Source: Candidatus Aldehydirespirator sp.
GTDB taxonomy: Bacteria > Actinomycetota > Acidimicrobiia > Acidimicrobiales > Aldehydirespiratoraceae
Length of the DNA: 64,000 nucleotides
Direction of reading: 5' to 3'
Assembly (NCBI GenBank): GCA_965220345.1
Contig: OZ244822.1
Coordinates: 1,350,669-1,414,668 of the forward strand
Below the pieces are notes generated by a model that searched no databases, was not told where the DNA came from, and saw only the letters and a list, made by a program, of their open reading frames with translations. This document shows, one piece after another, positions 10,279 to 37,171 of this stretch. The position numbers and the translations under genes were made by a program. Position 1 is the stretch's first letter. Each line of letters begins with the position of its first letter.

Positions 10279-10611
10279 ATTCAGCGGGCATCAGAAGGAG
10301 GTGGCGGTTCGCTCAAGGCGACAACCCGCAAGCGACCATCAGAAGGTGGTGACAAGCTCATGCGCTTCTACGATACGCCTCGTTGGGCATCTGCGAGCGG
10401 TTGCGTGCAGCTGGGCTTGTGCTGTTGTTGATGTCAGCTCCTTACCGGCTTGGAGGCTGAAGGCAGAAGTGATATAGAAGGACAGAGGGTCACTGAATTA
10501 GCGACTCTCAGCCACTACCTTCAATCCCGACGGTAAGCCGCATCTGAATCCCCAGCGGGTCAAACCCGAGACGGCCAGCGGCACACGAGAAGCCTTAAGA
10601 AGCCCCAGATC

Positions 10612-13147: not shown

Positions 13148-15349
13148 ATGACTGCACAATCTGTGTCACCTGCCACAGCCTCAGGCACGCTGGCGTTGCT
13201 GTTGGACTCATCTCCCGAGACTGATGTCGAAGCGGCCAACGCGGCCAACTCAGCCGCTGTAGCTGAGGCTGCAAGCGCAAGCTATGACGCTGACTCAATT
13301 GAGACGCTTGAAGGCCTTGAAGCTGTGCGCAAACGCCCAGCCATGTACATCGGCGGCAACGGCTCCGAAGGCTTAATGCATCTTGTCTGGGAGATCATCG
13401 ACAATGCCGTAGACGAAGCTGCTGCAGGTTTCGCTACCAAAGTAGACATGGCCTTGCGTCGCGACGGTTCAGTTGAAGTAACCGACAACGGGCGCGGTAT
13501 TCCGGTAGGTAAACATCCTGATCGCGACGTGTCAGCTCTTGAAGTGGTTTTCACTGAGCTACATGCTGGCGGAAAGTTCGGTGAGGGTGCCTACAAGGCA
13601 TCAGGAGGCTTGCACGGTGTTGGGGCTTCGGTTGTGAATGCCTTGTCCACACGTCTTGACGTGGAGGTTCGTCGCGACGGCTATTTCCATGAACTGAGCT
13701 TCAAAGATCAACAACCAGGGCATTTCAACGGCAGCAAGTTCAAACCCGGCCATGATGTTCGTCCCGATAAGCGGCGCACCAAAACCACCGGCACAAGAGT
13801 GCGGTTCTGGCCGGATGCTGCGTTGTTTGCTGCCGATGCTCGTATCGACGCTGAAGAAGTTCGCACAAGGGCTCGTCAGCTCTGCTACCTAGTGCCAGGG
13901 TTGCGGATGACCGTGACCGACAACCGTGCTGGCGAAAACAGCGAGCCTTTCGAGTGCGTCAGCCGCGGCGGTGTCAGCGACATGGTGAAAGAGCGTTCGC
14001 AGCAACTGTCGGACACGGCGGTGAGCGGCGTGATCACAATCAACGGCATCGACCGTTTCGTTGAGAAAGTTCCGGTCAACGGAAAGATCACAGAAGTCGA
14101 GCGTGAATGCACCGTCGATATTGCGTTGCGCTGGGTGCCGGGATACGACAGCAATGTCGAGTCGTTCGTGAACACGATCCCAACCCGCTTGGGTGGCACG
14201 CATCTGGCTGGGTTCGACAAGGCTCTGACCCGAGCAGTCAACAGTGTGCTGCTCAAAGAAAACCGCAAGCTGGCGCGCCTGGCCCGTGACAGCGGTGCCG
14301 CTGCCAGCGCCAAGAACGGCAAAGCTGTCAAGGTCAGCGCCACCAAAGACGATGTCCAAGAAGGCTTAGTCGCGGCGGTAAAAGTGACTTTCTCAGAGCC
14401 GCAGTTCCGTGGCCAGACCAAACAAGAACTCGGCACACCCGCAGTTGAGGGCATCGTTGCTCGTATCACCTATGAGCAGCTCAAAGAATGGTTCGAGCCG
14501 GGGGGTGGCCCTCGTTCACAGGTCAAGTCCATAGGCGACAAGCTCGCTGATGCGGTGGTCAATCGGGTTGCTTCCAAGCAGATGCTTGACACCAAGCGCA
14601 AAGCAGCCAGTCTCGGCTCCACCGGTATGCCTGACAAGCTTGCCGACTGCCGAGTTCACGGCCCAGAGGCTGAGCTGATCCTTGTGGAGGGTGATTCGGC
14701 TGCAGGTCCGGCCAAGCGAGGCCGCGACTCGGAGTTCATGGCGATTTTGCCGTTGCGAGGCAAGATCGTCAACGCGGCCAAGGCCAGCACCAAGCAGGTG
14801 TTCGATAACGCTGAAGCTCAAGCGATCTTCACTGCTATGGGTGCAGGAGCGGGCGAAGCTTTCGATATTGCTTCGGCCCGCTACGGGCGGATAGTGATCC
14901 TGTGTGATGCCGATGTTGATGGCAGCCACATCCGCTGCCTGCTGTTGACTTTGATCTACGGATACATGCGCGAGATGCTGTTGCAAGGTCGAGTTTTCTC
15001 GGCGCAGCCGCCGCTGTATACCGCTCGGGTTGGCGAACGAACTTATCGGGCCTACTCCGACGACGAGCGTGATCGGATTACTGCTGAACTTTGTCGCGGC
15101 AGGCGCCAACGCGAGAACATCAGATGGCAGCGGTTTAAGGGTCTTGGCGAGATGAACACAGACGAACTTCGTTATTGCGCGCTTGATCCAGCCACCCGAA
15201 CGCTGCGCCGTCTCACCATGGCTGACGCTGCTCAGGCTGACACTGCCGCGCGCATGTTCGAAGTGTTGATGGGCAGCGATGTCGGTCAGCGGCGCGAGTA
15301 TTTGGTGGATAATTCATCGCTGGTTGATGAAGCAACCCTTGACATCTAG
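13148..15349 (+). CDS. type IIA DNA topoisomerase subunit B (GyrB/ParE family)
   Basis: GLEAVRKRPAMYIGG, ATPase HLVWEIIDNAVDEA, LHGVGASVVNALS, and TOPRIM ELILVEGDSAAG / PLRGKIVN / ILCDADVDGSHI. The ORF is open from 13022, but ATG 13148 lies 1 nt after the subunit A stop. Confidence 0.9.
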   Translation: MTAQSVSPATASGTLALLLDSSPETDVEAANAANSAAVAEAASASYDADSIETLEGLEAVRKRPAMYIGGNGSEGLMHLVWEIIDNAVDEAAAGFATKVDMALRRDGSVEVTDNGRGIPVGKHPDRDVSALEVVFTELHAGGKFGEGAYKASGGLHGVGASVVNALSTRLDVEVRRDGYFHELSFKDQQPGHFNGSKFKPGHDVRPDKRRTKTTGTRVRFWPDAALFAADARIDAEEVRTRARQLCYLVPGLRMTVTDNRAGENSEPFECVSRGGVSDMVKERSQQLSDTAVSGVITINGIDRFVEKVPVNGKITEVERECTVDIALRWVPGYDSNVESFVNTIPTRLGGTHLAGFDKALTRAVNSVLLKENRKLARLARDSGAAASAKNGKAVKVSATKDDVQEGLVAAVKVTFSEPQFRGQTKQELGTPAVEGIVARITYEQLKEWFEPGGGPRSQVKSIGDKLADAVVNRVASKQMLDTKRKAASLGSTGMPDKLADCRVHGPEAELILVEGDSAAGPAKRGRDSEFMAILPLRGKIVNAAKASTKQVFDNAEAQAIFTAMGAGAGEAFDIASARYGRIVILCDADVDGSHIRCLLLTLIYGYMREMLLQGRVFSAQPPLYTARVGERTYRAYSDDERDRITAELCRGRRQRENIRWQRFKGLGEMNTDELRYCALDPATRTLRRLTMADAAQADTAARMFEVLMGSDVGQRREYLVDNSSLVDEATLDI

Positions 15350-15486
15350 CTAAGGCTTGAGTTTCAGTGGACGGTCAGGTGGCGCTGCGAGTGAATGCAC
15401 AGTCAGATACGTCATTGACCGCCGCGTTAAGGTCAGCCGATACAGGTTCCGGGTATTTGTCGCGCCGATGAACTAGAAACAGGATT

Positions 15487-16377
15487 GTGCAACTCCCCTT
15501 TGACCAAACCGACATCCATGACCCCGAAGGGCTGGGTGCCTTAGACCCTGACGGTGGCCCGAGTCTGCCTCAGAAGCTGTCACCGTCTGGGGCGGCCACC
15601 TTTGAGCAGTGTCCCCGCCGGTGGCGGTTCCGTTATGTGGAGCGCCTACCGGATCCTCCAGGCGTTGAAGCGCTAGTGGGGACGTTCGCTCATCGGGTGC
15701 TTGAGCTGCTTATGCAGCGGCATCCCGGTAACCGCAGCAAGGACGAGGCACGGCGGATCGCACGGCAAGCCTGGTCGGAGATATCCGTTAGTCACGACTA
15801 TCGCGAGCTGGCGCTTGACGATGCCGCAGCTCGAGAGTTTCGCTGGTCGGCTTGGAACGCTATTGAGGGGCTCTGGGATTTGGAGGAGCCCTCTGAGGTA
15901 GAAGTAGTGTCCACCGAACAGCAGGTGTCGGCGACTCTCGGCGGGGTGCCTTTCCGGGGTGTGGTTGACCGAGTTGAGTCAGAGCCGGACGGCCTGGTGA
16001 TTAGCGATTACAAGTCGGGGCGGGCACCGTCGCCGCGTTATGCGATCGGGCGGTTAAAGCAAGTGCTTTTGTATGCCGCCGCCATAGCCGAACAAGCTGG
16101 TGAACAGCCGGTGCGGGCACAGCTGCTTTATTTGGGTCAGAAGGTTGTGTCGACCGCGGTCAACACTGCTGAACTTGACGGAGCTGTTGAACAGTTCACA
16201 GAAACCTGGGAAGCCATAGGCGACTCCTGTCGCAGCGACGACTTTGAGCCGCGTCCAGGGCCGCTGTGCTGCTACTGCTCGTATTCGCAGCTATGTCCAG
16301 AGGGTCAAGACGAGAAGACTCGCAGAGAAGAACTTCGAGCTGCTGAGGAAGCAAGCTTGCTGCGGATGGCTGGCTAG
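15487..16377 (+). CDS. RecB-family PD-(D/E)XK exonuclease (Cas4-like fold with Cys cluster)
   Basis: N-terminal CPRRWRFRYVE, VVDRV...LVISDYKSGR, QVLLYA, and C-terminal CCYCSYSQLCP. Confidence 0.8.
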   Translation: MQLPFDQTDIHDPEGLGALDPDGGPSLPQKLSPSGAATFEQCPRRWRFRYVERLPDPPGVEALVGTFAHRVLELLMQRHPGNRSKDEARRIARQAWSEISVSHDYRELALDDAAAREFRWSAWNAIEGLWDLEEPSEVEVVSTEQQVSATLGGVPFRGVVDRVESEPDGLVISDYKSGRAPSPRYAIGRLKQVLLYAAAIAEQAGEQPVRAQLLYLGQKVVSTAVNTAELDGAVEQFTETWEAIGDSCRSDDFEPRPGPLCCYCSYSQLCPEGQDEKTRREELRAAEEASLLRMAG

Positions 16378-16427
16378 TTTCTGCTGACGAGATCTGCGTG
16401 GGCTAGATCTGCCAGGGTTGCCTCTGC

Positions 16428-16745
16428 CTAGTTTTGGCTTCGTTTGTGGTTCCTGCTGAATATTCTCACAAGCACCAGAGTCATCGCTGCGACAGCTACC
16501 GCAAAAGCCCAAACCGCAGACGCAGGTATACGGTGCAAGATGCGACGACCAAGTCCGCTGCGTAGTTCGCGGCCGCTGTCGGCTGCTGTTGGCTGTGCGC
16601 CGTTTGCTGTGTAGTCCGTCTTGTGAGCGATCTCGCTGGCGGGCGGTAGTTGCTCGCCAAGAGGATCTAGCAGGCTGTCAACAACAGGGGCCCCTTCGGC
16701 GCTGCGTCGGCGGCGGGGTTGATCCCTCTGAGGGTCATAAACCAT
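16428..16745 (-). CDS. hypothetical small membrane protein
   Basis: 105-aa ORF downstream of and co-oriented with parA-like. One C-terminal TM stretch (VWAFAVAVAAMTLVLVRIF). No motif found. Confidence 0.35.
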   Translation of the reverse strand: MVYDPQRDQPRRRRSAEGAPVVDSLLDPLGEQLPPASEIAHKTDYTANGAQPTAADSGRELRSGLGRRILHRIPASAVWAFAVAVAAMTLVLVRIFSRNHKRSQN

Positions 16746-16778
16746 TGCTACCCCTTACAGAAACTTGAACTTGATAGC

Positions 16779-17600
16779 TCACGAACCTAAACCCGAGCCA
16801 ATCACCGAATCGTAGATCTGATCAAACTCAGCTGATGCCTCGGCTGCACCTTTGCGGGGTGTCAGCGCATGAATCGGCAGAGACCTTGCTGCGGCTTCGG
16901 CCACAGCTGCCCGAAGCCGCACCGCTGGCAGCATCAAATCACTGTGATCGGCGCTGAGCTGCTCATACCAGTAGCGCGAATCCCGAGTACGGGCGAGACG
17001 GTTCACAGCCACTCCCGCAACTCCTAAGCCCAGAGGCTTGCGAGCCGCAACACGCTCAATGGTTTGCATGATCTCGTTGACCCCGTCTGAAGCCCAAGCA
17101 CTGGGCTCAGTCACAACAAGGGCTTTGTCGGCTGCGAACAAGGCGTTGATCGTCAACAAGCCGAGCGACGGAGGACAGTCGATCAGCACTAGGCCCTCGT
17201 CGCAACCCGACAGCGCTAGCCGCAAGCGGTCTTGAGCACCAACAGGATCAGACAGAAGCTGGCGCTCGCGGGCTGCAAGAGCTGCAGCGGATGCCACCAC
17301 CCGCGGAGGGGTGCCTTGGTCGTCGGGCCATGTTGAAGACACCGCCAGCTTGCTAGCAATGCCGGGACGGTCTGATGCCAAAGCCTCGTCAACTGTGGTC
17401 TCAGCTCCCCAGACACCGAGTCCTGTGGTGGCGTTGCCTTGCGGATCTAGGTCAACCACAAGGCTCGGAACTTGCCGTGCCCATGCGGCAGAGGCCAGCC
17501 CCAAAGTGGTGGTGGTCTTGCCGACCCCACCTTTCTGGTTGACTAGAGCAATTATCGCCACACCTTGCACGGTAGCCCGCAGCAGTGATGCTGCCCACAC
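16779..17600 (-). CDS. ParA/Soj-family ATPase (orphan; no adjacent parB)
   Basis: Deviant Walker A NQKGGVGKTTTT, and LVLIDCPPSLG. A GTG near 17570 is a plausible alternative start. Confidence 0.85.
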   Translation of the reverse strand: MWAASLLRATVQGVAIIALVNQKGGVGKTTTTLGLASAAWARQVPSLVVDLDPQGNATTGLGVWGAETTVDEALASDRPGIASKLAVSSTWPDDQGTPPRVVASAAALAARERQLLSDPVGAQDRLRLALSGCDEGLVLIDCPPSLGLLTINALFAADKALVVTEPSAWASDGVNEIMQTIERVAARKPLGLGVAGVAVNRLARTRDSRYWYEQLSADHSDLMLPAVRLRAAVAEAAARSLPIHALTPRKGAAEASAEFDQIYDSVIGSGLGS

Positions 17601-17635
17601 CGCAGAAGTCGCCTATTCGGAGCACACTTGAAGTC

Positions 17636-18880
17636 ATGGTTTCACCCAGCCGAAAGCCTCAAGCGCTAAGAGAGCCTAGAAAGCCTCGCTGGCTGCGTGA
17701 GTTGCTGGCGGTTCGCAGCGCCTTCGCGGCTCTTGTGCTGGCAGCGGTTGCCAGTCTGGTGGCTGGCCTGATTCTGGCATCAATCACCGACACACTCGAA
17801 GAACTACCGGGTTTGTTGCTGCTGGTACCAGCGGCGATAGCAGTCAAAGGCAACATTTTCGGTGCGCTCGGTAGCCGTCTCGGCACCGCTATCCATGCTG
17901 GCACGTTTCGGATGTCGCGGCGCAGCGACTCGCTGATGGCCCAGAACGCCGCGGCCTCGGTGGCACTGAGCCTGGGACTCGGGGTAGCTCTAGCGGTAAT
18001 GGCCAAAGGCACGGCGCTGATCTTCAACATTTCACCAACAATGAGCCTCGCGGATTTTGTGGTTGTGTCAGCGCTGGGGTGCTTGATAGCAGCATTCGTG
18101 GTGCTGGCGATCACGCTTGCCACCACCGCAGCCGCAGTGCGCTTCGGCTGGGACCTCGACAATGTGGTAGCACCCATGGTGACAGTGTCAGGCGATGTAG
18201 TGACGTTGCCGTCTCTGGTGTTGGCTGCCGAGCTTGCAGGTTTTGAGATCCTCACACCTGTCGTTGCTTGGACTTTGGCGGTGCTGGCTGTAGTGTCGGC
18301 GCTTTGGGGTCTGCGCAGCCAGCTAAGCGAATTGCGCCAGATCATGCGCGAGTCGATCCCAGTGCTGATAGTGGCGGGACTGCTGGATCTGGTGGCGGGG
18401 ATCACAGTAGAAAAACGCCTTGATGATTTCGTGGCTTTTCCGGCGTTGCTGGTGATGCTGCCGGGGTTTTTGAGCACTGCGGGCGCTCTCGGCGGGGTTC
18501 TGTCAAGTCGTTTGTCTACCAAGTTGCATCTAGGGCTGGCTAGACCGTCGGCTCTGCCCTCGGGCGGGGCCCGCATTGACCTGTTTACAACCTTCGCGCT
18601 GTCGATCCCTGTGTTCGCGCTGTTGGGTTTAGTGTCGTCAGCTGCCGCCGGTTTTGCTGGTCACTCCGGCCCTTCTCTGGCAGAGTTGGTTGGCGTTGCG
18701 GTGCTCGGCGGAGTTCTCGCAACGGTAATGATCGTGGCGGTCGCCTACTACGGAACGCTTACTGCAGTTCGTTTTGGAGTGGATCCCGACACCTACGGCA
18801 TACCAGTGGTGACTTCCTCGCTCGACTTGGCGGGAGCATTCACGCTGATAGTGGCGATTGTTGTTGTGGGTGTGACGTGA
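17636..18880 (+). CDS. MgtE/SLC41-like divalent-cation transporter, membrane domain only
   Basis: Two internal repeats carry KGNIFGALGSRLGTAIHAG and TAGALGGVLSSRLSTKLHLG. ATG at 17636 avoids the overlap with parA-like that the 17585 start creates. Confidence 0.8.
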   Translation: MVSPSRKPQALREPRKPRWLRELLAVRSAFAALVLAAVASLVAGLILASITDTLEELPGLLLLVPAAIAVKGNIFGALGSRLGTAIHAGTFRMSRRSDSLMAQNAAASVALSLGLGVALAVMAKGTALIFNISPTMSLADFVVVSALGCLIAAFVVLAITLATTAAAVRFGWDLDNVVAPMVTVSGDVVTLPSLVLAAELAGFEILTPVVAWTLAVLAVVSALWGLRSQLSELRQIMRESIPVLIVAGLLDLVAGITVEKRLDDFVAFPALLVMLPGFLSTAGALGGVLSSRLSTKLHLGLARPSALPSGGARIDLFTTFALSIPVFALLGLVSSAAAGFAGHSGPSLAELVGVAVLGGVLATVMIVAVAYYGTLTAVRFGVDPDTYGIPVVTSSLDLAGAFTLIVAIVVVGVT

Positions 18881-26084: not shown

Positions 26085-26762
26085 TCAAAACAGGCGCAGT
26101 TCGGGTGACTCGACACCTCGTAGTTCGTCGTAGTCCACCTCGACACAGTCGATTGAGCGGTCGGTTGCCAGCACCTTGGCCTGCGGTTTGATGTTTTGAG
26201 CGACCAGAATGCCGCGCACAGGTGCCAGAGTCGGGTCTGAGTTGAGGTAATGCAGATAGCGGGTGAGCTGTTCTACGCCGTCGATCTCGCCGCTGCGCTT
26301 CACTTCAACAGCTACGGTGCTGCCCTCGGAGTCTCGGCACAACAAGTCGACAGGACCAATTTTGGTGGGATACTCGCGCCGCACCAGGGTGAAGCCTTCT
26401 GAGATCGCCTCGGGTTGTTGAGCTAGTAGTTGCTGAAGCTGTGCCTCTACTCCGTCTTTTTGTAGGCCTGGATCCGTGCCCATTTCGTGGATGATGTCGT
26501 CAAGCACTTCTTCGACTTTGATCACAAGCGAGTCGCTGCGTCCCGCAGCTGTAACCCGCCATACTCCGGCTTCTTCGTCGATCACCAGCCGATTCGGGGA
26601 GTTCATCCAGTTGAGAGGCTTGTAGGCACCGCCGTCGGCATGCACAGACACGGAACCGTCTGCCTTGACCATTATCAAACGAACCGCCGAAGGCAGATGA
26701 GCCTGCAAGCGACCGTCGTAGTCAACGGTGCAGCGGGCGATCATGAGCCGCACCCCAAGCAA
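26085..26762 (-). CDS. nucS: endonuclease NucS (EndoMS)
   Basis: [46 protein letters not shown], and the nuclease half GPVDLLCRD...VAVEVKR. Confidence 0.9.
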
Positions 26763-26894: not shown

Positions 26895-28274
26895 TCAGCC
26901 GCCTGGTGATCCCACGTCTAACCCACCGGGTGTCTGCACACCCCCATCACCAGTTCCCAGAGCGCCTTCTTCTGCAGGATCATCCTGCTTGGTAGCTTTG
27001 TCGCTGGTTTTTGGTGGGGCATCGTTGGAGCTATCTATTTGTTGTGGAGTGTCCTCAGGGTCGCTCGCATTCTCAGTAGATCCATCTTCGGCGCTAGGCG
27101 CGTTCTCATCGCTATCCGCGCCTGGTGTGCTCTCTGCATCAGAGTTAGCTTCCCCAGAATCGCTTTCCGCTTGTTCGTTCGACTCCTCTTCTGGGCTGTC
27201 ATCAGATTCTGTTCCGAGTAATTCGGTGCCACCAAGATCAGGCTGGTCTGAATTATTAGGATTAGGCTGGTCTGAGGCATCACTGGGTTCGTTGTCAGTA
27301 CCAGATTCGCTTTCTGTGTTAGGTGTGTTTGCATCAGGTAAACTTTCCTCGAGCGGGTCGCCGCTATTGCCGTCTCCGAGTTCAGCAGAACCTTCTTTGT
27401 CAGTGCCAGTATCGCCAACCTTGCTGCCTGTGTCCGGGATGGTCTCGGCATCAGAGTCAGCCTCCCCAGAATCGCTTTCCGCTTGTTCGTTCGACTCCTC
27501 TTCTGCGGGCACTTCGTCCAAACCGGTGGTCTGTTCCTCGGGCGGGCCGACCGTGTCTTCAATCCCCGACTTAGCCAACTCCGCAGCATCACGAGCATCC
27601 TGCAAATCATACGGAAACACCCAATCATACTCACCTTCCTCATCCACCTGCACCACATCGATAAAAGGTTTGCCCTTTCCGTAACCCAGAGAATTGTCGT
27701 CATATATGCGCACTACTCCACCAAGCGTTTTGATCCAGTACAGCCCCAACGCATATCCTTGTGTTCCTAGATCGCTAGGTCCCGCATAGACTAAATACTG
27801 TGGTGAGTCATCCGAACCGATACTTCTGATTCCATCTTCAAATAACTCGATCTCTCTATCGAAGAGCCTTGACTTTTTACTACCATCAAGAGTTTCCTGC
27901 AGAGCAAGAACTCCTAAAGTGATACGAGATTCAGATTCGGGCATCTCACCAATTAGCACTTCATCAGCTTCAAGTACGATACCCTCATAGACATCGACCA
28001 CTTCCCAATCTGACTCGGCAACAGATAACATGCCGGTTGTAGGCGGTTCTATAATGAGGCGCTCCTTATAGTCGACTACTCGGCCAATAAAAACTACTTC
28101 AGCAGCGTCAGTAATCGCATTGATATCGTCATATAGATGTTCATAAGCATGGATATATGCTACAGGAATGTTCTCATCAAGAACAGTCAAATTTCGTGCA
28201 CCTGAATTATTGCTACAGGAAGCAGATAGTAGTAAAAAAGTACCTAGAATCATAGATATAATTTTGTAATTCAT
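26895..28274 (-). CDS. lipoprotein with a long acidic low-complexity C-terminal region containing a duplicated segment
   Basis: Signal/lipobox MNYKIISMILGTFLLLSASC. EEESNEQAESDSGEA(D/N)SDAE occurs twice. The 5' half of the gene is visibly AT-rich. Confidence 0.7.
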   Translation of the reverse strand: MNYKIISMILGTFLLLSASCSNNSGARNLTVLDENIPVAYIHAYEHLYDDINAITDAAEVVFIGRVVDYKERLIIEPPTTGMLSVAESDWEVVDVYEGIVLEADEVLIGEMPESESRITLGVLALQETLDGSKKSRLFDREIELFEDGIRSIGSDDSPQYLVYAGPSDLGTQGYALGLYWIKTLGGVVRIYDDNSLGYGKGKPFIDVVQVDEEGEYDWVFPYDLQDARDAAELAKSGIEDTVGPPEEQTTGLDEVPAEEESNEQAESDSGEADSDAETIPDTGSKVGDTGTDKEGSAELGDGNSGDPLEESLPDANTPNTESESGTDNEPSDASDQPNPNNSDQPDLGGTELLGTESDDSPEEESNEQAESDSGEANSDAESTPGADSDENAPSAEDGSTENASDPEDTPQQIDSSNDAPPKTSDKATKQDDPAEEGALGTGDGGVQTPGGLDVGSPGG

Positions 28275-28319
28275 ACTAATACATACTCTCTAATATTGAA
28301 GTTGTATAGCTATAATTTC

Positions 28320-28790
28320 TCACCGGTCTAGCATATTATTCATACCATCATTCACACAACTTGATTCAGAGTTGCCGTGATGAAAGCCTATACTATGAGC
28401 CAATTCATGGCAAACCATATTCTTCCGGCTCAACACAGTTTCACTATTGTAGGCATCCGAATCGATTTCTATTGTGCCACGATTACATATAGTGGTACCT
28501 CCAGATTCAGTCGTGCATCGAAACCAAGCAAGAATCTCAGAGTTCTCAATCGGAATGACTTGCCATGTGAGATCTGCTAATTCGCGAGTTCCTGCCTCTC
28601 TTAGAGTTATATCAGTGTTGGCATATACATCATCTCCGCCAGTTTTGAAGTAGGACTGCCATTGCTTACGCTCATCTTTATCGTCCTCAATAGAACGGTA
28701 TGTATGAAGACTATCTGCTGCGAAGGGCAAACCAATCTCTATCCGCTTTTGTCGGTGATTCCAAAAGGAGAAGCAGAGAAGTGGCGGCAA
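28320..28790 (-). CDS. small metzincin-type zinc metalloprotease (snapalysin-like)
   Basis: HELAHSIGFHH fits HExxHxxGxxH and is followed by SSCVNDGM (a possible Met-turn). TTG start with GAAGG 8 nt upstream. No signal peptide. Overlaps the upstream ORF by 52 nt in another frame. Confidence 0.6.
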   Translation of the reverse strand: MPPLLCFSFWNHRQKRIEIGLPFAADSLHTYRSIEDDKDERKQWQSYFKTGGDDVYANTDITLREAGTRELADLTWQVIPIENSEILAWFRCTTESGGTTICNRGTIEIDSDAYNSETVLSRKNMVCHELAHSIGFHHGNSESSCVNDGMNNMLDR

Positions 28791-29452
28791 TAACTGCCTT
28801 CTTTAAGGGTAACCAGCTTGTATTTTTCCGCACAACCTTGAGATGCGGTATTAGCACTACGACGGCATTTACTGCCCTCTAGAGTCCAGTTATCACTTCC
28901 GAATGTAATTGGTACAGCTTTACGCCGCTGCGGAGTAAGTGCGACCTTGACTACCCCTTCGCAATGAGCAACTGGCGGAGATACAGTCTCAACCTTCTTC
29001 TTGCACTTGTTATCACTGCGATCAATGATGTGACCATCAGAGCATAACAACTCTGGCGGCTTCCGTTTCTCTATCTTCCGCTGACGAGTCTCATACACAG
29101 GTTCAAAATTGAGAACCTCACGATCCTCATAATTGAAAACCTCCTGATCCTCATAATTAAACACCTCACGAGTCTTCGTCACCTGCTGATTCTCATAATT
29201 CTCAACACTCTCAGTCTCATAATTAAACACCACACGCCACTCATAATTATAATCAGGCACACTCTCATAATTATAATTTGGGATTGTCTCATAATTGTAG
29301 ACTGCACGCGTCTCATAATTATACACCGGAACTGTGTTATACTTAACAACACTCCGCGTCTCATAATTATAAGCTGGCACCGTCTTCCAGACCGTCCGAT
29401 AACCCGTCTTGCGTATAATCCTATAATTCCACTTCAAACACCTACCCATCAA
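28739..29452 (-). CDS. YNYE-repeat protein with Cys-containing C-terminal domain (probably the distal part of one TAG-interrupted gene)
   Basis: 237-aa AT-rich ORF. Roughly a dozen degenerate 7-9-aa repeats (PAYNYETR, PVYNYETR, AVYNYET, PNYNYES, PDYNYEW, VFNYETE, VFNYEDQ, VFNYEDR, VLNFEP). No signal peptide of its own. Confidence 0.5.
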   Translation of the reverse strand: MMGRCLKWNYRIIRKTGYRTVWKTVPAYNYETRSVVKYNTVPVYNYETRAVYNYETIPNYNYESVPDYNYEWRVVFNYETESVENYENQQVTKTREVFNYEDQEVFNYEDREVLNFEPVYETRQRKIEKRKPPELLCSDGHIIDRSDNKCKKKVETVSPPVAHCEGVVKVALTPQRRKAVPITFGSDNWTLEGSKCRRSANTASQGCAEKYKLVTLKEGSYCRHFSASPFGITDKSG

Positions 29453-29464
29453 ATACTCATTACA

Positions 29465-30121
29465 CTAACTACGCTCACGAACCGTATACGAATACGACTC
29501 ACGAACCGACACCCGCTCCGTGAACGGAGCCACACGCACCCGCACAGAAAACGGAGGAACCCTCACCTGCTTCGTAAACGGAGCCACACGCACCTGCCTG
29601 TTGAAAGGCGCAACCCGAACCTGCCTCGTAAACGGAGCCACACGCACGCGTTCACTAAACGGCGGCACACGACGCTCACCGGTCTTCACCTCATAATCCT
29701 CAAGTATCGTCGCTACGCACTGCCCAGACCCCGAATCAAACACCCACGACAACGGATCCTCCGTCGTCGCAAAACAACTCACAACTGGATCCACCACCGA
29801 AACCGACGAAACCACACACTTACCATCACGCAAAACAACCGAAGACCCCACAGGAACCGCAGCACACTTCTTCAACGCATCCACACTCACCACACCAGAA
29901 CACCGCGACGATGACACCTCATATACGAGTCCCGGTGGGCACAACGGCGGCCTCGCCAACAACTCTTTAGTGGCCGGTACCCGTTCCTCTATATCCGCCT
30001 GAGCAGGAACCGGCACCGATGTCAATAGCACAACCACCGCAACAAGCAGCCAACACCATCGCCTCCTCACCAGCAAGCCCAACACGCTCATAGCCAAACT
30101 ATGACACGCAGGCTGCGCCAC
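29465..30121 (-). CDS. secreted Cys-containing protein with RVAPF nonapeptide repeats
   Basis: Signal peptide (LLVAVVVLLTSVPVPAQA). C-terminal repeats are VPPFSERVR/VAPFTRQVR/VAPFNRQVR/VAPFTKQVR/VPPFSVRVR/VAPFTERVS. Ends at a TAG that is in frame with the next ORF. Confidence 0.6.
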   Translation of the reverse strand: MAQPACHSLAMSVLGLLVRRRWCWLLVAVVVLLTSVPVPAQADIEERVPATKELLARPPLCPPGLVYEVSSSRCSGVVSVDALKKCAAVPVGSSVVLRDGKCVVSSVSVVDPVVSCFATTEDPLSWVFDSGSGQCVATILEDYEVKTGERRVPPFSERVRVAPFTRQVRVAPFNRQVRVAPFTKQVRVPPFSVRVRVAPFTERVSVRESYSYTVRERS

Positions 30122-30148
30122 GTCAAGAGCCAGCCACTCATGTAGCGT

Positions 30149-30493
30149 TCAACTGGGTTGGATGCCGAGGCGCATTAGTGCAGCCCTGCGGATCTGTTCT
30201 CCGACTGTTAGCAGAAAAGTGTCAAGGGGCAGAGTGCCTATGCCTCTTGTGTCGTCGTCGGGTTGGATCACAGCTGCTTTCGGAGCGACGATGTAGCTGT
30301 GGCCGCTGAAGTGAGGGTGTTGTTTGATCAACGCTTCAAGACCTCGGTGGCTGTGGCCGGGCGACGAAGCGACCTCAATGGCTAGGGGCTGTTGCGGGTC
30401 GACATAGATCAGATCGACTTCGTGGTCGGCATTTCTCCAATAGTGAAGTCGCACACCAGCGTGTGCAGCGAGGGTATGCAGAGTCGCTGCCAT
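30149..30493 (-). pseudogene. C-terminal remnant of an AAA/DUF4143-family ATPase
   Basis: HYWRNADHEVDLIYVDPQQPLAIEVASS matches the C-terminal module of DUF4143 ATPases (compare SHLRTHKGVHEIDAVIETPEGGIIAIEIKSA in the 55528 gene). The P-loop half is absent. Confidence 0.6.
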
Positions 30494-30546
30494 AGAACTT
30501 TCGGCGGAGTGAGTGAAGCTTAGGCGGCTTGGGGTTGAAGTGAGTC

Positions 30547-31170
30547 TCAGCTAAGGTCAGCAAGCTCGTTGGCAACGACGGGGCAGTCAATGTTTGCGGG
30601 ACCGGAGCGAATGAGGTCAGCGAGCGTGTCGTCATCCACGGGTGCGAAATCCCATGCGTCGACTCCGACGTTGATTTGTCGGTCGTTCTGCCGCCATTTT
30701 TCGTGGATGTGCCCGTGCAGCAGCCAGCCGCCAGTGTCTTCTGGACGATATTGCTGATAGCGCTGGTCATGGTGAGAGTCGTTGCGGTACGGGAAGTGGT
30801 TGACGAGCACATCAACGTCTGCTAGCGAGACCGGCGCAGGGTCATCAAGAATCTCAGCGATCCCGCCAAGACGGTAGTAGACCTCTTTTTGTTTGGGGCC
30901 TTTGCGGTGATGCTGCCAGCAAGCGTCATGGTTGCCTGGCACCAGAATCTTGTGTCCCTTGAGACGCGCCACATGGTCTTTGAGCCGTTTCGGTAGCTGG
31001 TTCATCACTAGGTCACCGAGCATCCACACCTCGTCGCTATCAGCTACAACATCATTCCAGCGTTCCACCATCGCTTCGCTCATCTCATCTGAGTTAGCGA
31101 ACGGACGGGCGCAGTAGCGGATGATGTTCTCATGGCCGAAATGCTGATCAGAAGTCCACCACCGAGTCAT
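30547..31170 (-). CDS. calcineurin-like metallophosphoesterase
   Basis: WWTSDQHFGHENI, MLGDL, VPGNHD, LLHGHIH. Confidence 0.8.
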   Translation of the reverse strand: MTRWWTSDQHFGHENIIRYCARPFANSDEMSEAMVERWNDVVADSDEVWMLGDLVMNQLPKRLKDHVARLKGHKILVPGNHDACWQHHRKGPKQKEVYYRLGGIAEILDDPAPVSLADVDVLVNHFPYRNDSHHDQRYQQYRPEDTGGWLLHGHIHEKWRQNDRQINVGVDAWDFAPVDDDTLADLIRSGPANIDCPVVANELADLS

Positions 31171-31949: not shown

Positions 31950-33224
31950 ATGGAGAATCCTTTCACGCCTGATTTTGGTTGTCGTCCGTCACGTATGGTC
32001 GGCTCAAACCCGATTTTGAGCAGGGTAGCTGCCACATTAGCAAGTGGTCCCTTGAGACCTGACTTCACGCGACTGCTGCTGGGTCCACGAGGTTCTGGTA
32101 AGACGGTGTTGCTGTATGAGATCGCAGAGAGCGCTGCACGCAACGGGTATTTCGTAGTGTTGGTCGATGCCTCCACTCCTGGACTGCCAGAACGCATCGC
32201 GGCAGGGATTGCAGAAACAAAAAGAGTTCATCCCACACTCAACATCCCCAACAGGCGCCGCCTGTCGGGGATTCACATAGGTCCAGTGGGATTCAATTTT
32301 CAGACAGTACCAGACCCTGAACCTAAGGAAGGGTTGAAACAACATCTACTAGGGATAGCAGCATGGGCAGAGCAGCATGACACTCGTGCAGTCCTCATCG
32401 TTGATGAAGTTCATGCAGGCGAACGCGAAGAGTTGCGGCGTTTAGCCTCAGAGGTGCAAGCCATAACGAAGGGTATGGAGCTGCCGTTGGCGCTGGTTGC
32501 AGCTGGTCTTACAGAGATGACGCACACAGTGCTGCGCGACAAGAAAATGACCTTCTTCCACAGATGCCATCGTGATCATGTTCCTCTCCTAACTCATGAC
32601 GAAGCTTGGAATGGATTGAGAACTATCATCAACGAGGCACAAGGCGAAATCACCCCGGATGCGCTTGATGTGATGGCAGAAGCGCTCGACGGGAGTCTCC
32701 CGTATCATCTGCAAAGCTTGGGGCATCATGCTTGGGTGATGGCGGGAGCACCGACACAACCCATTGATGCTGATGTGGCTGCATCCGCTTTGAAACAAGC
32801 CAGCAAGGATCTAGCCGAACGAATCGTGGAGCCCATGTGGCACGATCTGTCGGACAAAGACCAGATGTATCTAGCCGCTGTAGCAGCCAACGCAGGTAAC
32901 ACCACCCCTTCTGAAATCGCAGAAACCATGGCGATGGTGTTCAGTAGGAAAGAATTACGCCGATCAGAATCTCGTCTAGAAGCGGCCGGGCATATCGAAG
33001 TAACCACCAGCGGCAGGATCGTGATGCAAGGTCCGTTGACCGTAGAAGCACTCCACAAGCTCGAAGAACTAGAAGCGAGATACGAAACTCGAAAAACTTC
33101 GCGTCCTTACCCGGTCACCGTCCCATCCAGAACGCTTTCACGATGCAACTCATATATGCCACGCGTACAAGCTCACTGTGTGCTACCGCGGGGGCATAAA
33201 GGCGGGCACCGCTCCAGAATATGA
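31950..33224 (+). CDS. P-loop NTPase of the Arch_ATPase/AAA_16 type with a C-terminal winged-helix-like region
   Basis: NPFTPDFG...LLLGPRGSGKTVLLYEI (Walker A), VLIVDEVH (Walker B), and C-terminal SEIAETMAMVFSRKELRRSESRLEAAGHIEV. Confidence 0.8.
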   Translation: MENPFTPDFGCRPSRMVGSNPILSRVAATLASGPLRPDFTRLLLGPRGSGKTVLLYEIAESAARNGYFVVLVDASTPGLPERIAAGIAETKRVHPTLNIPNRRRLSGIHIGPVGFNFQTVPDPEPKEGLKQHLLGIAAWAEQHDTRAVLIVDEVHAGEREELRRLASEVQAITKGMELPLALVAAGLTEMTHTVLRDKKMTFFHRCHRDHVPLLTHDEAWNGLRTIINEAQGEITPDALDVMAEALDGSLPYHLQSLGHHAWVMAGAPTQPIDADVAASALKQASKDLAERIVEPMWHDLSDKDQMYLAAVAANAGNTTPSEIAETMAMVFSRKELRRSESRLEAAGHIEVTTSGRIVMQGPLTVEALHKLEELEARYETRKTSRPYPVTVPSRTLSRCNSYMPRVQAHCVLPRGHKGGHRSRI

Positions 33225-33278: not shown

Positions 33279-36035
33279 TTAGTCGTTGTCTTTGATGGTT
33301 AAGACGGGTTGTTTGTCGCTGATGTGTACGCCGCCTGTGGGTTCTGATAATACGATTGTGAATGTTTCATCTGGTTCTTTGATGCGATCATTCAACGCGT
33401 ATATCAAACCCATATTTAAAGTCACACCCGGCCTGAAAGACACAGTTGAGGTCCGTAACACGAAATCCTGGCCTGCTGTCGCATATCCAGTACCTGTACC
33501 AAGTATCCCAGGAGTGTACTTAACTGTCACCTGTTCACTAGAAGGCTTGCTCAACCTGAAACGAACAAGATAAAACGGACTCCGACCCTCAACATAAGTA
33601 GCCTCCTCCACAGAAATCGTAACCACATCTGCAGGCGGCGGCGGTGATGGTGGTGGGTTGTCATCATCTGAGACCGTTACTGTTGCTGAAGATGCTGAAG
33701 AGTCCACATCGTAAGCAGCGCTGTTGACTACTGTGACGGTTATTGAGCCGTCGGCTTCGTCAGTGTTGTCGTTGCTGGTTGCGATGGTGAGTGTGGTGGT
33801 GCCGTCGGTTCCGATTGTGATTGTGCGGTGGCCGGTGGTGACTGCGTAGTTGCCGTTAGCTGTGATGTTCACTGATACGTCTAGTGCTGCTGCTGGTGCG
33901 GGGGTTGCGGTGAGCGTGAAGGTTGCGTTGTCGCCTTCGGTTATGTCGCTGTTAGCGGTGATAGCAATCTCAGGAGTAGCTGGCACAGGGTCAACAGGCG
34001 GCACTGGGTCAACCGGTGGTGTGGTTTCGGGTTCGTTTTGGGTTTGGTCTGTTACAGAATCTTCGGTTTGCGGTGGCGGGTTTGCTGCTAATGCGGTGAG
34101 TGCTTCTGCGACTGGGTTCCAGCGGATACGCCAGTAGGTTTGCGCGTATTTTTGTGCTTCAGTCGCGGTCATGGGGGTGCCAGTGAACCCAGGTACGGTT
34201 TCTCCGAAGGCTAGGAGTACTCGTTTCCAACGGTTTACGTGTGCAGCACCGTTTTGGGTTTCTGCTGCATAGCCTTGCACATCAGCTATCAAGCTTTGTG
34301 GGACTGTGTAGCTAGGGGTTTTTATTGTGTCGCCGTTTTCGCTTTGGGGTTGAACCGTTTCTGAGTCCTGCGCTTGTGGTGGTGGGGCTGCTTCTAGCGC
34401 GGTGAGTGCTGTGACTACTGGGTTCCAGCGGGTCCAGCCTTTGTCTGCGTAGGTTTGCGCTTCAGCAGCAGTCATGGATGCTCCCGTGAACCCGGGCACG
34501 GTTTCGCCGAAAGCGACCAGTACACGTTTCCAACGATTCACATGCTCGTCACCGTTGGATGTTTCAGCCGCATAAGAACGAACATCATCAACAAGACTTT
34601 GCGGTACCGTTTCTAAGCTGGTGATAGTGTCTTGGCCTCCTGCGACGACATAAACCGGTGAAATACCATACAGCGGAAATATGAAATGTGAGGAACCCGA
34701 TTGTACATTAATCGGTTTAGCAATGCCGGAATTAGTTAAGGAAGAGTCCCCGGCAATCACTCTACTTCCGCCAAGTGAGGTTCCATTGCCACTCCTGCCA
34801 TTAGTTTGCGTGCCTGTCCAAACACCTCGTAGACTGTTGGTGTAATCGTAGTTATGCGCCGATCCTTGCTCGTTGCGTCGGTTGCTCACTAAATAGTTTT
34901 CCCAGGCATTCGACCAGAAACCCATCCTGTCGGTGTTGCTGTAGTCTTGGCTTACACGTAGTCCATTCAGCCAGTACACTGGCGCTGCGATATCACCAGG
35001 CCGCATCAGTGTGTGAACACGAGCATGCACTGTGGGTGTTGATGCTACTGCCCGATATTTTGACGCGTGTTCTCGTATTGCTATATGACCACGACGTGCT
35101 GCGTTTTGCACGAAAGCGTCGTAATCCGCGATGTCTGCTGATGAGCCGTCACGACCTGTTGATGTTATAAACAACAACCGGAATCTGTCGCCCGATCCTA
35201 TGCCGTCAGGGATCAGCGGCCAATTCTGGGGCACCGCCTGCTGGCTGTTCACAGGGACCTTCGCCCACTCACGCAGATCGGTGATCGCGTCGGCTTGGGC
35301 AACATTTGGTGGGTTGGGGTTTTTGATGCACCATTGCACATAGCCGGTTTCTTTGATGCCGAGGTTACGAAAGAAGCTTCGCATGAACTGTTTATGAACC
35401 CCAAATTGGCCAGGAGTATCAAAACATATGCTATCAACATGAGTTCCAGAACGTTTCGGCATTGTTGATATACCGTCAGTGAAAGACGGCCATGCTACGT
35501 CCCTTTTTTGTGCTGAGTTTCCGTTAACGTCTCTAGGGATCATAGTCAAACCGAAGCTTTTCGACCCATGATCTTTATAGATAGTCTCGCTGCCGCCAGC
35601 TAGCAGCGCATCAAGCTGGATTTCCTCGGTGTGGTAGTAGGTACGGGCTACTCCTACACATGAACGTGGGTTTGGGTGACTTGTTGTCTTACCTTCGAAA
35701 GTGAAAGTCACCGGGTCTAGATAGTGGCCTCCTTCGCATCGGTTTGTGTTGCTGGTGTTTTTGTTCGGGTTTTTGGCTTGCAGCGATACCGACCAAACAC
35801 GATCTGCTTTCACTTCGCAACGCAATTCTTCAGCATCAGACTGCGTTCCTGTGCAATCCGCTACATAGTTAGAGTAATTCACTAACCATTGTGGTAGGTA
35901 GCGTACGCCGTTGGGTTGGGTTCGCCATCCGCCTTGCGCTACAGCAGGAGCGACAGACACAACCCCCAACAAAGCAGCCACAAGCGCACCAGCTACAAAA
36001 CAACCCCCAACACGCCACCCGAGCCGTCGACACAT
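33279..36035 (-). CDS. large secreted surface protein with two Calx-beta-like domains and an internal ~90-aa duplication
   Basis: Signal peptide MCRRLGWRVGGCFVAGALVAALLGVVSVAPAVAQG. A duplicated module VPQSL(V/I)(D/A)DV..YAAET.NG..HVNRWKRVL.AFGETVPGFTG. A C-terminal Calx-beta signature (YATAGQDFV...NDRIKEPDETFTIVL). The ORF is open to a TTG at 36077. Confidence 0.8.
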   Translation of the reverse strand: MCRRLGWRVGGCFVAGALVAALLGVVSVAPAVAQGGWRTQPNGVRYLPQWLVNYSNYVADCTGTQSDAEELRCEVKADRVWSVSLQAKNPNKNTSNTNRCEGGHYLDPVTFTFEGKTTSHPNPRSCVGVARTYYHTEEIQLDALLAGGSETIYKDHGSKSFGLTMIPRDVNGNSAQKRDVAWPSFTDGISTMPKRSGTHVDSICFDTPGQFGVHKQFMRSFFRNLGIKETGYVQWCIKNPNPPNVAQADAITDLREWAKVPVNSQQAVPQNWPLIPDGIGSGDRFRLLFITSTGRDGSSADIADYDAFVQNAARRGHIAIREHASKYRAVASTPTVHARVHTLMRPGDIAAPVYWLNGLRVSQDYSNTDRMGFWSNAWENYLVSNRRNEQGSAHNYDYTNSLRGVWTGTQTNGRSGNGTSLGGSRVIAGDSSLTNSGIAKPINVQSGSSHFIFPLYGISPVYVVAGGQDTITSLETVPQSLVDDVRSYAAETSNGDEHVNRWKRVLVAFGETVPGFTGASMTAAEAQTYADKGWTRWNPVVTALTALEAAPPPQAQDSETVQPQSENGDTIKTPSYTVPQSLIADVQGYAAETQNGAAHVNRWKRVLLAFGETVPGFTGTPMTATEAQKYAQTYWRIRWNPVAEALTALAANPPPQTEDSVTDQTQNEPETTPPVDPVPPVDPVPATPEIAITANSDITEGDNATFTLTATPAPAAALDVSVNITANGNYAVTTGHRTITIGTDGTTTLTIATSNDNTDEADGSITVTVVNSAAYDVDSSASSATVTVSDDDNPPPSPPPPADVVTISVEEATYVEGRSPFYLVRFRLSKPSSEQVTVKYTPGILGTGTGYATAGQDFVLRTSTVSFRPGVTLNMGLIYALNDRIKEPDETFTIVLSEPTGGVHISDKQPVLTIKDND

Positions 36036-36049
36036 GCTAACAACCCCGC

Positions 36050-36061
36050 GGGGGGGGGGGG
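36050..36061. repeat. G12 (C12 on the coding strand) homopolymeric tract at the 5' end of the surface-protein gene
   Basis: Read directly: ...caaccccgc gggggggggggg cagcc... Confidence 0.95.
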
Positions 36062-36388
36062 CAGCCAGCATCAACAAATCTCAACCAACCCCCAAAACGC
36101 TTCACCACACCGGTCATAACAAACCTCCTAAACAGCCCCCACCAAAACAGGCAGGAACCACTACTATCCATAATAAACCCAACCCTACCACACCCCAACC
36201 CCAAACACGCAACGGGAGCACGGGACCAACCAGAAGCAGCCACAAGGGCAGGTCTGATGCGACCTGTCGGGTGGCTAGTTCTCCTGAGGCTGCGGTCAAG
36301 CACTTTCGACATCTGAGCTATGCGGACAGTCCTAGACGCTCAAGCAGAGCCCGTGAACCCGTTAACAACGAAGGCGTTTCTACGCTTT

Positions 36389-37171
36389 TCAGTGAAGGGC
36401 GTGCAGGATTGGGTCGGCTAGTTCGGGTCTACAGATCACCAGATCAGGCAGGTAAGGGTCGGCCTGGTTATAGCGAAGGGGCGAGCCATCAACCCGGCTA
36501 GCTGCAAAGCCTGCGGCCTCAGCTACTGCAACGGGAGCGCATGAGTCCCACTCGTATTGGCCGCCAGTATGCACATACATGTCGGCCTCCCCGGAAACTA
36601 CTGCCATTGCCTTGGCACCTGCTGAACCCAGCGGAGTGATCTCCGCATCCAGCGCGACTGCTACAGCATGAGCTTTTTGAGTGACGCGTTTACGTGACAC
36701 CACCATCCGAGCGGGACCGTTGCGCCTTGCGGGCATCGCTGGCGGATCAGCCGTCGAGAACACCAGCCCCAAAGCTGGCAGCGCCACCGCTCCCACCACG
36801 GGACGATGGTCGATGACTAGCGCCACATGAACCGCCCAGTCCACACGAGGCGGCCAGCAATATTGCTCGGTGCCATCAAGCGGGTCGATCACCCAGACAC
36901 GCTCGGCATTGAGTCGTGACGAGTCGTCGTCGCCTTCCTCAGATAGCACAGCGTCGCCGGGACGCGCCGCAGCTAACTGTTGCGCCAGCAGTTCATGAGC
37001 TTGCCTGTCACCTTCAAGCCCTAACTCTGGGCCGATTATCCCATGAGCGTTTAGCCGCGCTCGCAGTTCCACTAGCAACGTGCCAGCGGTGTTCGCTAAT
37101 TCTGCAGCTAAGCGGTGGTCGTCTAGAGTTGGTTCTGCAGCGCTCAAACTGCCGTCATTGCTGCTACTCAA
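36389..37171 (-). CDS. cysQ: 3'(2'),5'-bisphosphate nucleotidase / inositol monophosphatase family
   Basis: VLSEEGDDD, WVIDPLDGT, and YEWDSCAPVAVAEAAG. Confidence 0.8.
   Translation of the reverse strand: MSSSNDGSLSAAEPTLDDHRLAAELANTAGTLLVELRARLNAHGIIGPELGLEGDRQAHELLAQQLAAARPGDAVLSEEGDDDSSRLNAERVWVIDPLDGTEQYCWPPRVDWAVHVALVIDHRPVVGAVALPALGLVFSTADPPAMPARRNGPARMVVSRKRVTQKAHAVAVALDAEITPLGSAGAKAMAVVSGEADMYVHTGGQYEWDSCAPVAVAEAAGFAASRVDGSPLRYNQADPYLPDLVICRPELADPILHALH

Follow-up and report, generated by a model that had tools for sequence, protein, structure and literature searches.

A candidate slippage-prone contingency locus in the 5′ leader of an endostatin-like/Calx-beta secreted protein gene of Acidimicrobiia

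Simple-repeat phase variation is a textbook subject in mucosal pathogens, and reports of it from environmental or symbiotic bacteria are few. In Neisseria gonorrhoeae, pilC carries a poly-G tract in the region that codes for the signal peptide, and the opa genes carry CTCTT repeats in their signal-peptide region. The lic1, lic2 and lic3 genes of Haemophilus influenzae have CAAT repeats at the 5′ end, between alternative ATG codons, and show graded expression. Homopolymers 5′ of surface-protein genes often act on the promoter, where tract length works as a switch, as at Bordetella fim and at Neisseria porA and opc. Among Actinobacteria, the glpK gene of Mycobacterium tuberculosis contains a 7C tract.

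Three further actinobacterial systems have been described. Homopolymeric tracts occur in Cutibacterium acnes, where length variation followed phylogenetic clades, which suggests slow change and not active switching (PMC4746626). The sortase-dependent pilus genes of Bifidobacterium breve contain intragenic G-tracts that are usually out of frame in the reference, and maximum-depth sequencing has shown that replication slippage yields an expressing subpopulation (PMC9187656). A poly-C tract is also present in nanH3 of Gardnerella (bioRxiv 10.1101/2020.09.16.300947). For sponge symbionts or Acidimicrobiia, we found no report of simple-repeat phase variation in the searchable literature.

Here, we describe a run of 12 cytosines (C12) at the 5′ end of a gene for a secreted protein, in a 64-kb stretch of bacterial DNA that was analyzed as a whole and is called the window below. 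An earlier note on this DNA had proposed the run as a phase-variation switch. As far as sequence comparison goes, the idea of a slippage-prone tract that precedes a secreted-protein gene, and whose length determines how a strongly SD-led start is framed with the main reading frame, is supported (12 of 13 loci have such a tract), but a simple ON/OFF reading is too simple. We consider it probable that the C12 run is a real, selectively maintained and slippage-prone tract, lying in the translated leader at the 5′ end of a gene that encodes a eukaryote-like, secreted adhesion protein, and thus a contingency locus that works by slipped-strand mispairing. A slippage switch of this sort is of a known kind; what would be new is the lineage (uncultured Acidimicrobiia), the gene family (endostatin-like/Calx-beta secreted proteins) and possibly a leader with three states.

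Judged by its sequence, the organism is an Acidimicrobiia bacterium. An origin in Corynebacterium, to which the OdhA-type fusion protein and a GC content of 56% had pointed, was rejected. Relatives of this OdhA-type protein, at ~80% identity, come from metagenome-assembled genomes named Acidimicrobiaceae or Acidimicrobiales bacterium, and no plasmid match was found for the window. The gene sits in a variable stretch with nucS on one side and the inositol-monophosphatase gene and odhA on the other, and it has a GC content of 51-52%, whereas the flanking housekeeping genes have 57-60%. Distant members of the endostatin-like family were found in the metagenomes of the sponges Sarcotragus foetidus (LXNI) and Aplysina aerophoba (MKWU), and sponge-symbiotic Acidimicrobiia have been reported to be enriched in Calx-beta proteins (PMC11706023). 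We infer that the window itself derives from a sponge symbiont.

The main open reading frame (ORF) lies on the minus strand at 33279-36035 and encodes a predicted secreted multidomain protein of 918 aa from the ATG at 36035, or 932 aa from a TTG at 36077. Its first part (35937-36035) reads in translation as a canonical Sec-type signal peptide, made up of MCRRLGWR, a hydrophobic core and AVA-QG, with cleavage predicted by the A-x-A rule. Residues 268-464 (34644-35234) form an endostatin-like domain that was identified from an AlphaFold2 model and Foldseek. The model, built with 14 family copies, has a pLDDT of 83 and a pTM of 0.85, and it matches human and mouse endostatin (1bnl, 1dy1, 1koe, 1dy0 and 1dy2) with a Foldseek probability of 1.00 and TM scores of 0.57-0.68. 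The modeled fold resembles that of endostatin (collagen XV/XVIII NC1), at a sequence identity to endostatin of only 13-17%. A C-terminal Calx-beta domain (33324-33629) matches Pfam PF03160 with E = 1.4e-10, as well as Calx-beta chains of the Na/Ca exchanger in the PDB. Between the endostatin-like and Calx-beta parts lie two copies of an uncharacterised repeat of ~80 aa (..YAAE..G..HVNRWKRVL.AFGE..; 34065-34616), which was recognized from invariant columns of the family alignment and by repeat extraction.

Pfam contained no family besides Calx-beta that matches the main ORF, and Pfam and PDB sequence searches with the N-terminal domain, the endostatin-like domain and the HVNRWKRVL repeat returned nothing significant. 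A profile of the endostatin-like domain matched 6,218 representative proteins at E <=0.001 and 1,515 at <=1e-30, often with many copies of the domain per protein. The protein of the window has few relatives, which are 47-64% identical and lie on several large contigs. Searched from both the 36035 and the 36071 starts, it was absent from the protein collection, and as no match exceeded 64% identity, the collection contains no other form of it either.

Read on the minus strand, the region contains ...cugUUUAGGAGGuuuguuAUGaccggu...gcuggcugCCCCCCCCCCCCgcgggguuguUAGcAUGugucgacgg..., and the coordinates that the earlier note gave for the AGGAGG, ATG 36117, the C12 run, the TAG and ATG 36035 were all confirmed there. 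An AGGAGG Shine-Dalgarno (SD) sequence (36124-36129) is followed, after a 6-nt spacer, by an ATG at 36117-36115. As claimed, this ATG opens a frame of 26 codons, MTGVVKRFGGWLRFVDAGCPPPPRGC*, which runs through the C12 tract (36050-36061; G12 if read from the plus strand), where slippage is proposed to occur, and stops at TAG 36039-36037, so that the leader ORF occupies 36037-36117. One base past this stop, in the arrangement TAGcATG, lies the signal-peptide ATG (36033-36035), which opens MCRRLGWRVGG... 14 nt 3′ of the tract. The equivalent of this ATG is the called start in the orthologue of a sister genome (locus L012), and it aligns with the starts of two relatives, P0003 and P0006. The strongest initiation signal of the region, AGGAGG-N6-ATG 36117, stands 5′ of the tract, with the same spacing as in the few SD-led genes of the window. 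Some 45-55 nt 5′ of ATG 36117, the hexamers TATTAT and GATAGT (36163-36175) may, as a weak candidate, form a -10 region, although a scan for the sigma-70 consensus gave no match; TANNNT-type hexamers occur at comparable places at three related loci (L008, L009 and L010).

With 12 C, the main frame reads TTG(36077) TTG(36074) ATG(36071) CTG GCT GCC CCC CCC CCC CGC..., giving the product MLAAPPPRGVVSMCRR.... The earlier note had listed TTG 36077 and ATG 36035 as the only starts available in this state. Both exist, but the list missed ATG 36071 (36069-36071), 5′ of the tract and in frame with the main ORF, which is without an SD and is absent from the sister genome.

The C12 run does stand out as the note had said: it is the sole homopolymer of at least 7 in the 64 kb, where all other runs are of 6 or fewer. 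It also exceeds the length of ~7-9 or more G/C, far above background, that is expected of a contingency locus. A run of at least 12 was reached in ~3 of 100 dinucleotide-preserving shuffles of the window, so the single tract is by itself only moderately unlikely; what rules out chance is that 11 other homologous loci carry such a tract in the same position. AGGAGG-N4-9-ATG/GTG occurs 10 times in the window, mostly within genes, and the strong SD-ATG cited in the earlier note is therefore weak evidence as a motif alone; what counts is its conservation in relatives.

We simulated tract lengths from C10 to C14, and these gave three predicted translational outcomes. At C11 or C14, as had been calculated before, ATG 36117 becomes fused to the main ORF, adding an N-terminal extension of 27 or 28 residues. 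At C12, the state of the assembly, the leader stops with its TAG at -4 relative to ATG 36035 (stop positions, here and below, are those of the stop codon's first base, counted from the first base of the main start), which is the geometry of termination-reinitiation, or translational coupling, in which the upstream stop overlaps the downstream start or lies within a few nucleotides of it. At C10 or C13, the leader ORF reads on and stops at +40, inside the main ORF. A reading of C11 and C14 as ON and of C12 as OFF keeps its fusing lengths, but C12 is not simply OFF, given ATG 36071 and the TAGcATG geometry, and the assignment is specific to the locus, being different in the sister genome.

That sister genome (2,834,047 bp) and the genome of the window (2,818,185 bp) share proteins that are >90% identical. 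The same odhA and inositol-monophosphatase genes lie upstream of the window locus and of its syntenic orthologue L012, and the intergenic regions of the two are ~90% identical. Across GGCTG-Cn-GCGGGGTTGTTAGCATGTGTCG they differ in nothing but n, the window having 12 C and L012 having 11. The tract-length comparison among relatives that the earlier note had proposed therefore finds variation at the same locus with conserved flanks, although the consensus calls may each be off by one, as the assemblies look long-read metagenomic from their contig names, and such an error weakens both this C12-versus-C11 comparison and the assignment of frame states. The AGGAGG and the upstream ATG are conserved in L012, and divergence is greatest in the leader between that ATG and the tract. 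The two leader ORFs differ by a 14-nt indel, with no conservation of peptide sequence, so that fusion to the main ORF requires C11/C14 in the window and C12/C9 in L012. A conserved functional leader peptide was rejected as an explanation, the leader being the least conserved segment between the window and the sister genome. The leaders of the paralogues L009 and L010 differ, as read from their sequences, by about seven non-synonymous changes and one synonymous change.

Since a single base decides the frame, and since long homopolymers are error-prone in long-read metagenome assemblies (the type suggested by these contig names), the true tract could be one base shorter and the gene an ordinary ORF that begins at ATG 36117. 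We regard this as highly unlikely. The sister genome would need the opposite correction, from C11 to C12, and of the 10 loci at which an upstream start is defined, just 2 read in frame, though a consensus at 100-200x (figures from the contig names) should mostly be right. The further possibility raised in the earlier note, that the tract itself is an assembly artefact, is not borne out: 12 homologous occurrences exclude artefact as the source of its existence. Comparable tracts were also found in an independent sponge metagenome assembly of Sarcotragus foetidus from 2013, so long-read homopolymer error cannot explain why they exist. In that assembly, locus L016 has a G13 tract 51 nt before the ATG of a gene that encodes a signal peptide, a Calx-beta-like region and an endostatin-like domain, and locus L022 has a C14 tract at the contig start, 54 nt before an ATG. 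On the evidence of these sequences, the tract is real, does not stem from an error in a single assembly and has been conserved across this gene family.

Pure C or G tracts of 9-20 nt were present in 12 of 13 related genes, on 7 contigs, always upstream of the signal-peptide start and at a distance of 4-36 nt from it. The tally is C9, C11, C11, C12, C12, C19, C20, G10, G11, G13 and G14, together with the C12 of the window. By locus, these include C11 in L006 (P0003), C9 in L007a (P0006), C20 in the second paralogue L007b, G11 in L008 (P0005), G14 in L009 (P0001), G10 in L010 (P0002), G13 in L011 (P0004), C11 in L012, C19 in L013 (P0007) and C12 in L015 (P0009); L014 (P0013) has no tract. Clade sequence totalling 208,497 bases contains 14 homopolymers of at least 9, all of them C or G, and 11 of the 14 are found 4-36 nt before the point at which a family gene begins its signal peptide. 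Read on the coding strand, some loci have C and others G at the homologous position, so selection would act on having a tract rather than on a particular sequence. By this comparison, the window locus belongs to a family of loci whose 5′ leaders carry such tracts. The sister genome alone has at least four family loci with tracts (L008, L009, L010 and L012), and a host-facing or surface product with several loci per genome, a typical though not defining trait of contingency loci, is seen here in the signal peptide and the Calx-beta and endostatin-like domains.

More distant relatives differ in this respect. A metagenome scan by domain alignment found 15 distant loci, only 2 of them with tracts, and a scan by whole-protein alignment confirmed no relatives; a contig scan with the protein returned only distant Calx-beta matches in unrelated phyla. 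The lack of a tract in L014 and in most of the distant relatives counts against control by the tract, as does a main start with its own SD in some relatives (GAGGAG in L006 and GGAGG in L015), where the tract may have little influence on translation.

Upstream of the tract, a start codon with a frame open into the tract is present in 11 of the 12 tract-bearing loci; L013 is open to the tract only from GTG or TTG candidates without a clear SD. Some of these upstream starts are led by an SD, namely AGGAGG-N6-ATG in the window and L012, TTAGGAG-N7-ATG in L009 and L010, and AAAGGAG-N7-ATG in L015. Others appear to be leaderless (TAGGAT, 7 nt, ATG in L006; TAAGCT, 7 nt, GTG in L007b), with the geometry seen at the window's own odhA and several other genes of the window. 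The main frame of L010 has no usable start that gives a complete signal peptide, which is obtained only by fusion to the upstream ATG; at least in L010, then, the upstream ATG is a genuine start.

The main rival to a selected switch is a neutral hot spot in a tolerant leader. The tract would be mutable without an effect on expression, translation would start constitutively at ATG 36035, the upstream ORFs would be incidental, and the tract would persist through mutational bias or by hitch-hiking with gene duplication. An unconserved leader peptide with a 14-nt indel between sister genomes fits this explanation, as do the good SD directly before the main start of some relatives, the frequency of AGGAGG-ATG motifs inside the genes of the window and the variation by clade in C. 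acnes (PMC4746626). The distribution of tracts speaks against it: the rest of the window has no pure tracts of 9-20 nt, the C and G versions share one position, and at all 12 loci the tract is within 36 nt of the signal-peptide start. Over the divergence seen (47-67% protein identity), substitutions should have broken up a neutral tract. The dependence of the complete signal peptide of L010 on its upstream ATG, and the conservation of the SD and upstream ATG when the leader between them and the tract is not conserved, also argue against it. Overall, we think an effect-free tract unlikely.

The 10 loci with a defined upstream start (L013 has none and was left out) fall into three frame classes, in which the leader is fused to the main ORF (2 loci), stops no more than 13 nt before the main start (4 loci) or overlaps it (4 loci). 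L007a and L008 are fused. The leader stops at or just before the main start in the window (-4, TAGcATG), L006 (-13), L007b (-10) and L009 (-2, TGATG), and it runs over the main start in L012 (+40), L010 (+16), L011 (+155) and L015 (+113). This scatter fits loci that would not be held in one frame and is what switchable loci should show, and all three classes would also be expected of a region free of frame constraint. Junctions of the coupling type recur: besides TAGcATG in the window and TGATG in L009, the latter is available in L008 at another length class and TAGTG is available in L011; L006, L007a and L007b have leader stops at -10 to -13 in the coupling-junction test. An off-frame stop beside the main start in several lineages suggests designed coupling, with a recurrence only marginally beyond chance (~0.04, a rough estimate in which paralogue ancestry was allowed for).

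Out-of-frame arrangements are the majority state, as would be expected if recoding took place on the RNA. Homopolymers of at least 9 are known sites of transcriptional slippage, and RNA polymerase might slip on the C or G run, or the ribosome shift on CCC/GGG, so that the tract sets a ratio and produces a fixed fraction of fused protein in place of a heritable switch. Differences in length are, however, seen directly in the DNA of orthologues and paralogues, and both the wide range of lengths (9-20) and the scatter of frame classes sit badly with one tuned ratio. We therefore rate recoding as improbable in its own right; transcriptional slippage could act on top of slippage in the DNA.

The tract might instead belong to a promoter, as a spacer or element whose length sets promoter strength, and the absence of a clear upstream start at L013 would agree with such a transcriptional switch. 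At other loci a conserved SD-ATG or a start of leaderless type lies upstream of the tract, and a consensus scan found no sigma-70-like promoter spanning it. In six loci the tract ends 4-14 nt before the main start, too short a distance to fit a -10 element and a transcription start. By its geometry and by the promoter scan, the locus does not belong with the promoter-spacer switches of Bordetella fim and Neisseria porA/opc, and we give a transcriptional switch very little credence. A structured regulatory RNA leader was likewise rejected, with no Rfam match in the window and a predicted fold no better than that of shuffled sequences (z = +0.93). A poly-C Rho-binding site and poly-proline stalling were rejected as general mechanisms; both could apply to the C-type loci and not to the G-type loci, so neither can be a common principle.

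For the slippage-prone contingency locus that we favor, a mechanism can be outlined. Replication slippage would change the tract length at a high rate, and each change of one base would move a ribosome that initiated upstream from one of three outcomes to another. At C11 or C14 it would make a fused preprotein in which MTGVVKRFGGWLR... is joined to ...RGVVSMCRR.... At C12 it would terminate at the TAG and might reinitiate at ATG 36035, one base on. At C10 or C13 the leader would overlap the main ORF and would be expected to occlude the main start, making this most likely the OFF state. With slippage this frequent, a population would therefore hold cells that make the protein in different amounts or forms. 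The window also encodes NucS (26085-26762). In Mycobacterium smegmatis, NucS does not repair indels in vivo (PMC7015689), and with repair of this type, which leaves indels, slippage products in a 12-nt run would go unrepaired.

A broader and more speculative proposal can be made, which we find rather doubtful at present. Uncultured Acidimicrobiia in sponges may run genome-wide, three-state translational 'gearboxes', in which a hypermutable C or G tract between the first start on the mRNA, whether SD-led or leaderless, and the signal-peptide start toggles a eukaryote-like adhesin with endostatin-like and Calx-beta domains between an extended form, a form that depends on reinitiation and an occluded OFF form. 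If so, a symbiont population would keep varying the surface molecules by which its animal host can recognize it, and this would be the first contingency-locus system to be described in a sponge symbiont, with a leader architecture of its own. Calx-beta is the domain that characterizes the aggregation factor of sponges themselves. Should the tracts switch, the symbionts would continuously vary the molecules most likely to mediate host recognition. Switching would also be a caution for annotators of metagenome-assembled genomes, since genes of this type are easily given the wrong start, split or labelled as pseudogenes.

Set beside the systems described at the outset, the locus is closest in layout to pilC and opa. 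There, as here, a simple repeat stands at the extreme 5′ end of a surface-protein gene, before or within the signal-peptide part, where slippage can shift the frame and with it expression, and a genome carries several paralogues, each with a tract length of its own. Unlike in pilC and opa, the tract of the window precedes the signal peptide proper and is followed by a second start, so that out-of-frame states need not be null, and the organism is an actinobacterium of Gram-positive type that encodes NucS and probably relies on it in place of MutS/L repair. The lic genes likewise have a repeat that separates alternative start codons from the rest of the ORF, and three length classes with three translational outcomes instead of plain ON/OFF. 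Their repeats are tetranucleotides with the alternative ATGs all upstream, whereas the window has a homopolymer, one start downstream of it and an off-frame stop that abuts this start.

The actinobacterial systems resemble the locus in other ways. The tracts of C. acnes are almost exclusively G/C, are found in the 5′ UTR or the 5′ part of the coding region of genes for putative surface proteins and vary in length between strains (PMC4746626). They differ in class (Actinomycetes, against Acidimicrobiia here), in host and in belonging to an unrelated gene family, and the architecture of an upstream and a downstream start, present in the family of the window, has not been described for them. B. 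breve, a host-associated commensal, is likewise an actinobacterium with a tract in a gene for a surface structure, but there the tract lies inside the coding sequence and here in a leader before the signal peptide. Like the window gene, nanH3 and glpK are actinobacterial genes with poly-C, and in these two the length varies within populations and shifts the frame. In nanH3 and glpK a frameshift truncates the product, an ON/OFF outcome, whereas the downstream start and the stop-start junction of the window would allow intermediate states.

The secreted protein contains two kinds of repeated domain. The first is a repeated domain of ~190 amino acids (GDKFRLLF...APVYWLNG...YGISPVYVV; alignment A2), found in the window at 34644-35234 on the minus strand, for which Pfam has no model. 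Its predicted fold resembles endostatin, the NC1 domain of collagen XV/XVIII. A profile of this endostatin-like domain matched 6,218 representative proteins, some of them with up to 14 copies, and the domain is a large bacterial family that has so far been uncharacterised. The second is a highly conserved repeat of ~80 amino acids, present in two copies at 34065-34616 on the minus strand, with the motif YAAE..G..HVNRWKRVL.AFGE..PGF.G..M...EA....W..RW.PV..AL..L; a family search with this repeat gave no match. In the homologue from the Sarcotragus foetidus metagenome (L016), the reading frame changes at a G5 run at ~1480-1500, between the Calx-beta-like part and the endostatin-like domain, which reflects either a mistake in the assembly or a true frameshift.

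Two open reading frames across the intergenic region, one of 91 aa (36037-36312, minus strand) and one of 196 aa (35911-36501, plus strand), are probably not genes: a stop codon closes the 91-aa frame in the sister genome, and the 196-aa frame runs antisense to the leader. In many genes of the window, among them those starting at 40962 (-), 31950 (+), 20206 (+) and 3855 (-), the start codon is preceded at 6-9 nt by a TANNNT hexamer and lacks an SD sequence; GGAG-N6-7-ATG is found in only a few (starts 18959, 49074 and 49938). This pattern suggests that leaderless mRNAs are widespread.

Genes of the family are usually adjoined by an AAA-type ATPase gene, often in convergent orientation, of the AAA_22/AAA_16/nSTAND or AAA_14/DUF4143 type (31950-33224 (+) in the window; 10634-11776, 9652-10935 and 1-1173 in the sister-genome loci L009, L008 and L010, respectively). 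In the window the family gene and the ATPase gene are adjacent, whereas at the syntenic sister-genome locus L012 an insertion with transposase and HTH genes separates them (14936-18381), which places the locus within a flexible region. Between nucS and the ATPase gene, a block of minus-strand ORFs (26895-31170) without Pfam matches has a GC content of 42-51% against ~57-58% in its flanks; this island was probably gained by horizontal transfer.

Other long tracts of the sister genome may represent additional phase-variable loci, defence genes included: an intergenic G15 in L009 (11896-11910), located upstream of an AAA_16/nSTAND gene of the opposite strand at a distance of 120 nt; a G14 in L010 (15296-15309) that breaks an ORF adjoining a GmrSD_N (DUF262) gene; and a C9 in L012 (14614-14622), 20 nt past the stop codon of the orthologue. 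Besides its C9 tract, the P0006 gene of locus L007 has a T8 run (5991-5998) between a -10-like TAAGCT and its first ATG, which could be a second slippage site.

The window also encodes NucS/EndoMS (26085-26762, minus strand; NucS_N and NucS_C domains), a marker of the non-canonical mismatch repair of actinobacteria. In M. smegmatis, NucS-type mismatch repair leaves indels unrepaired (PMC7015689), which makes it relevant to tract instability.
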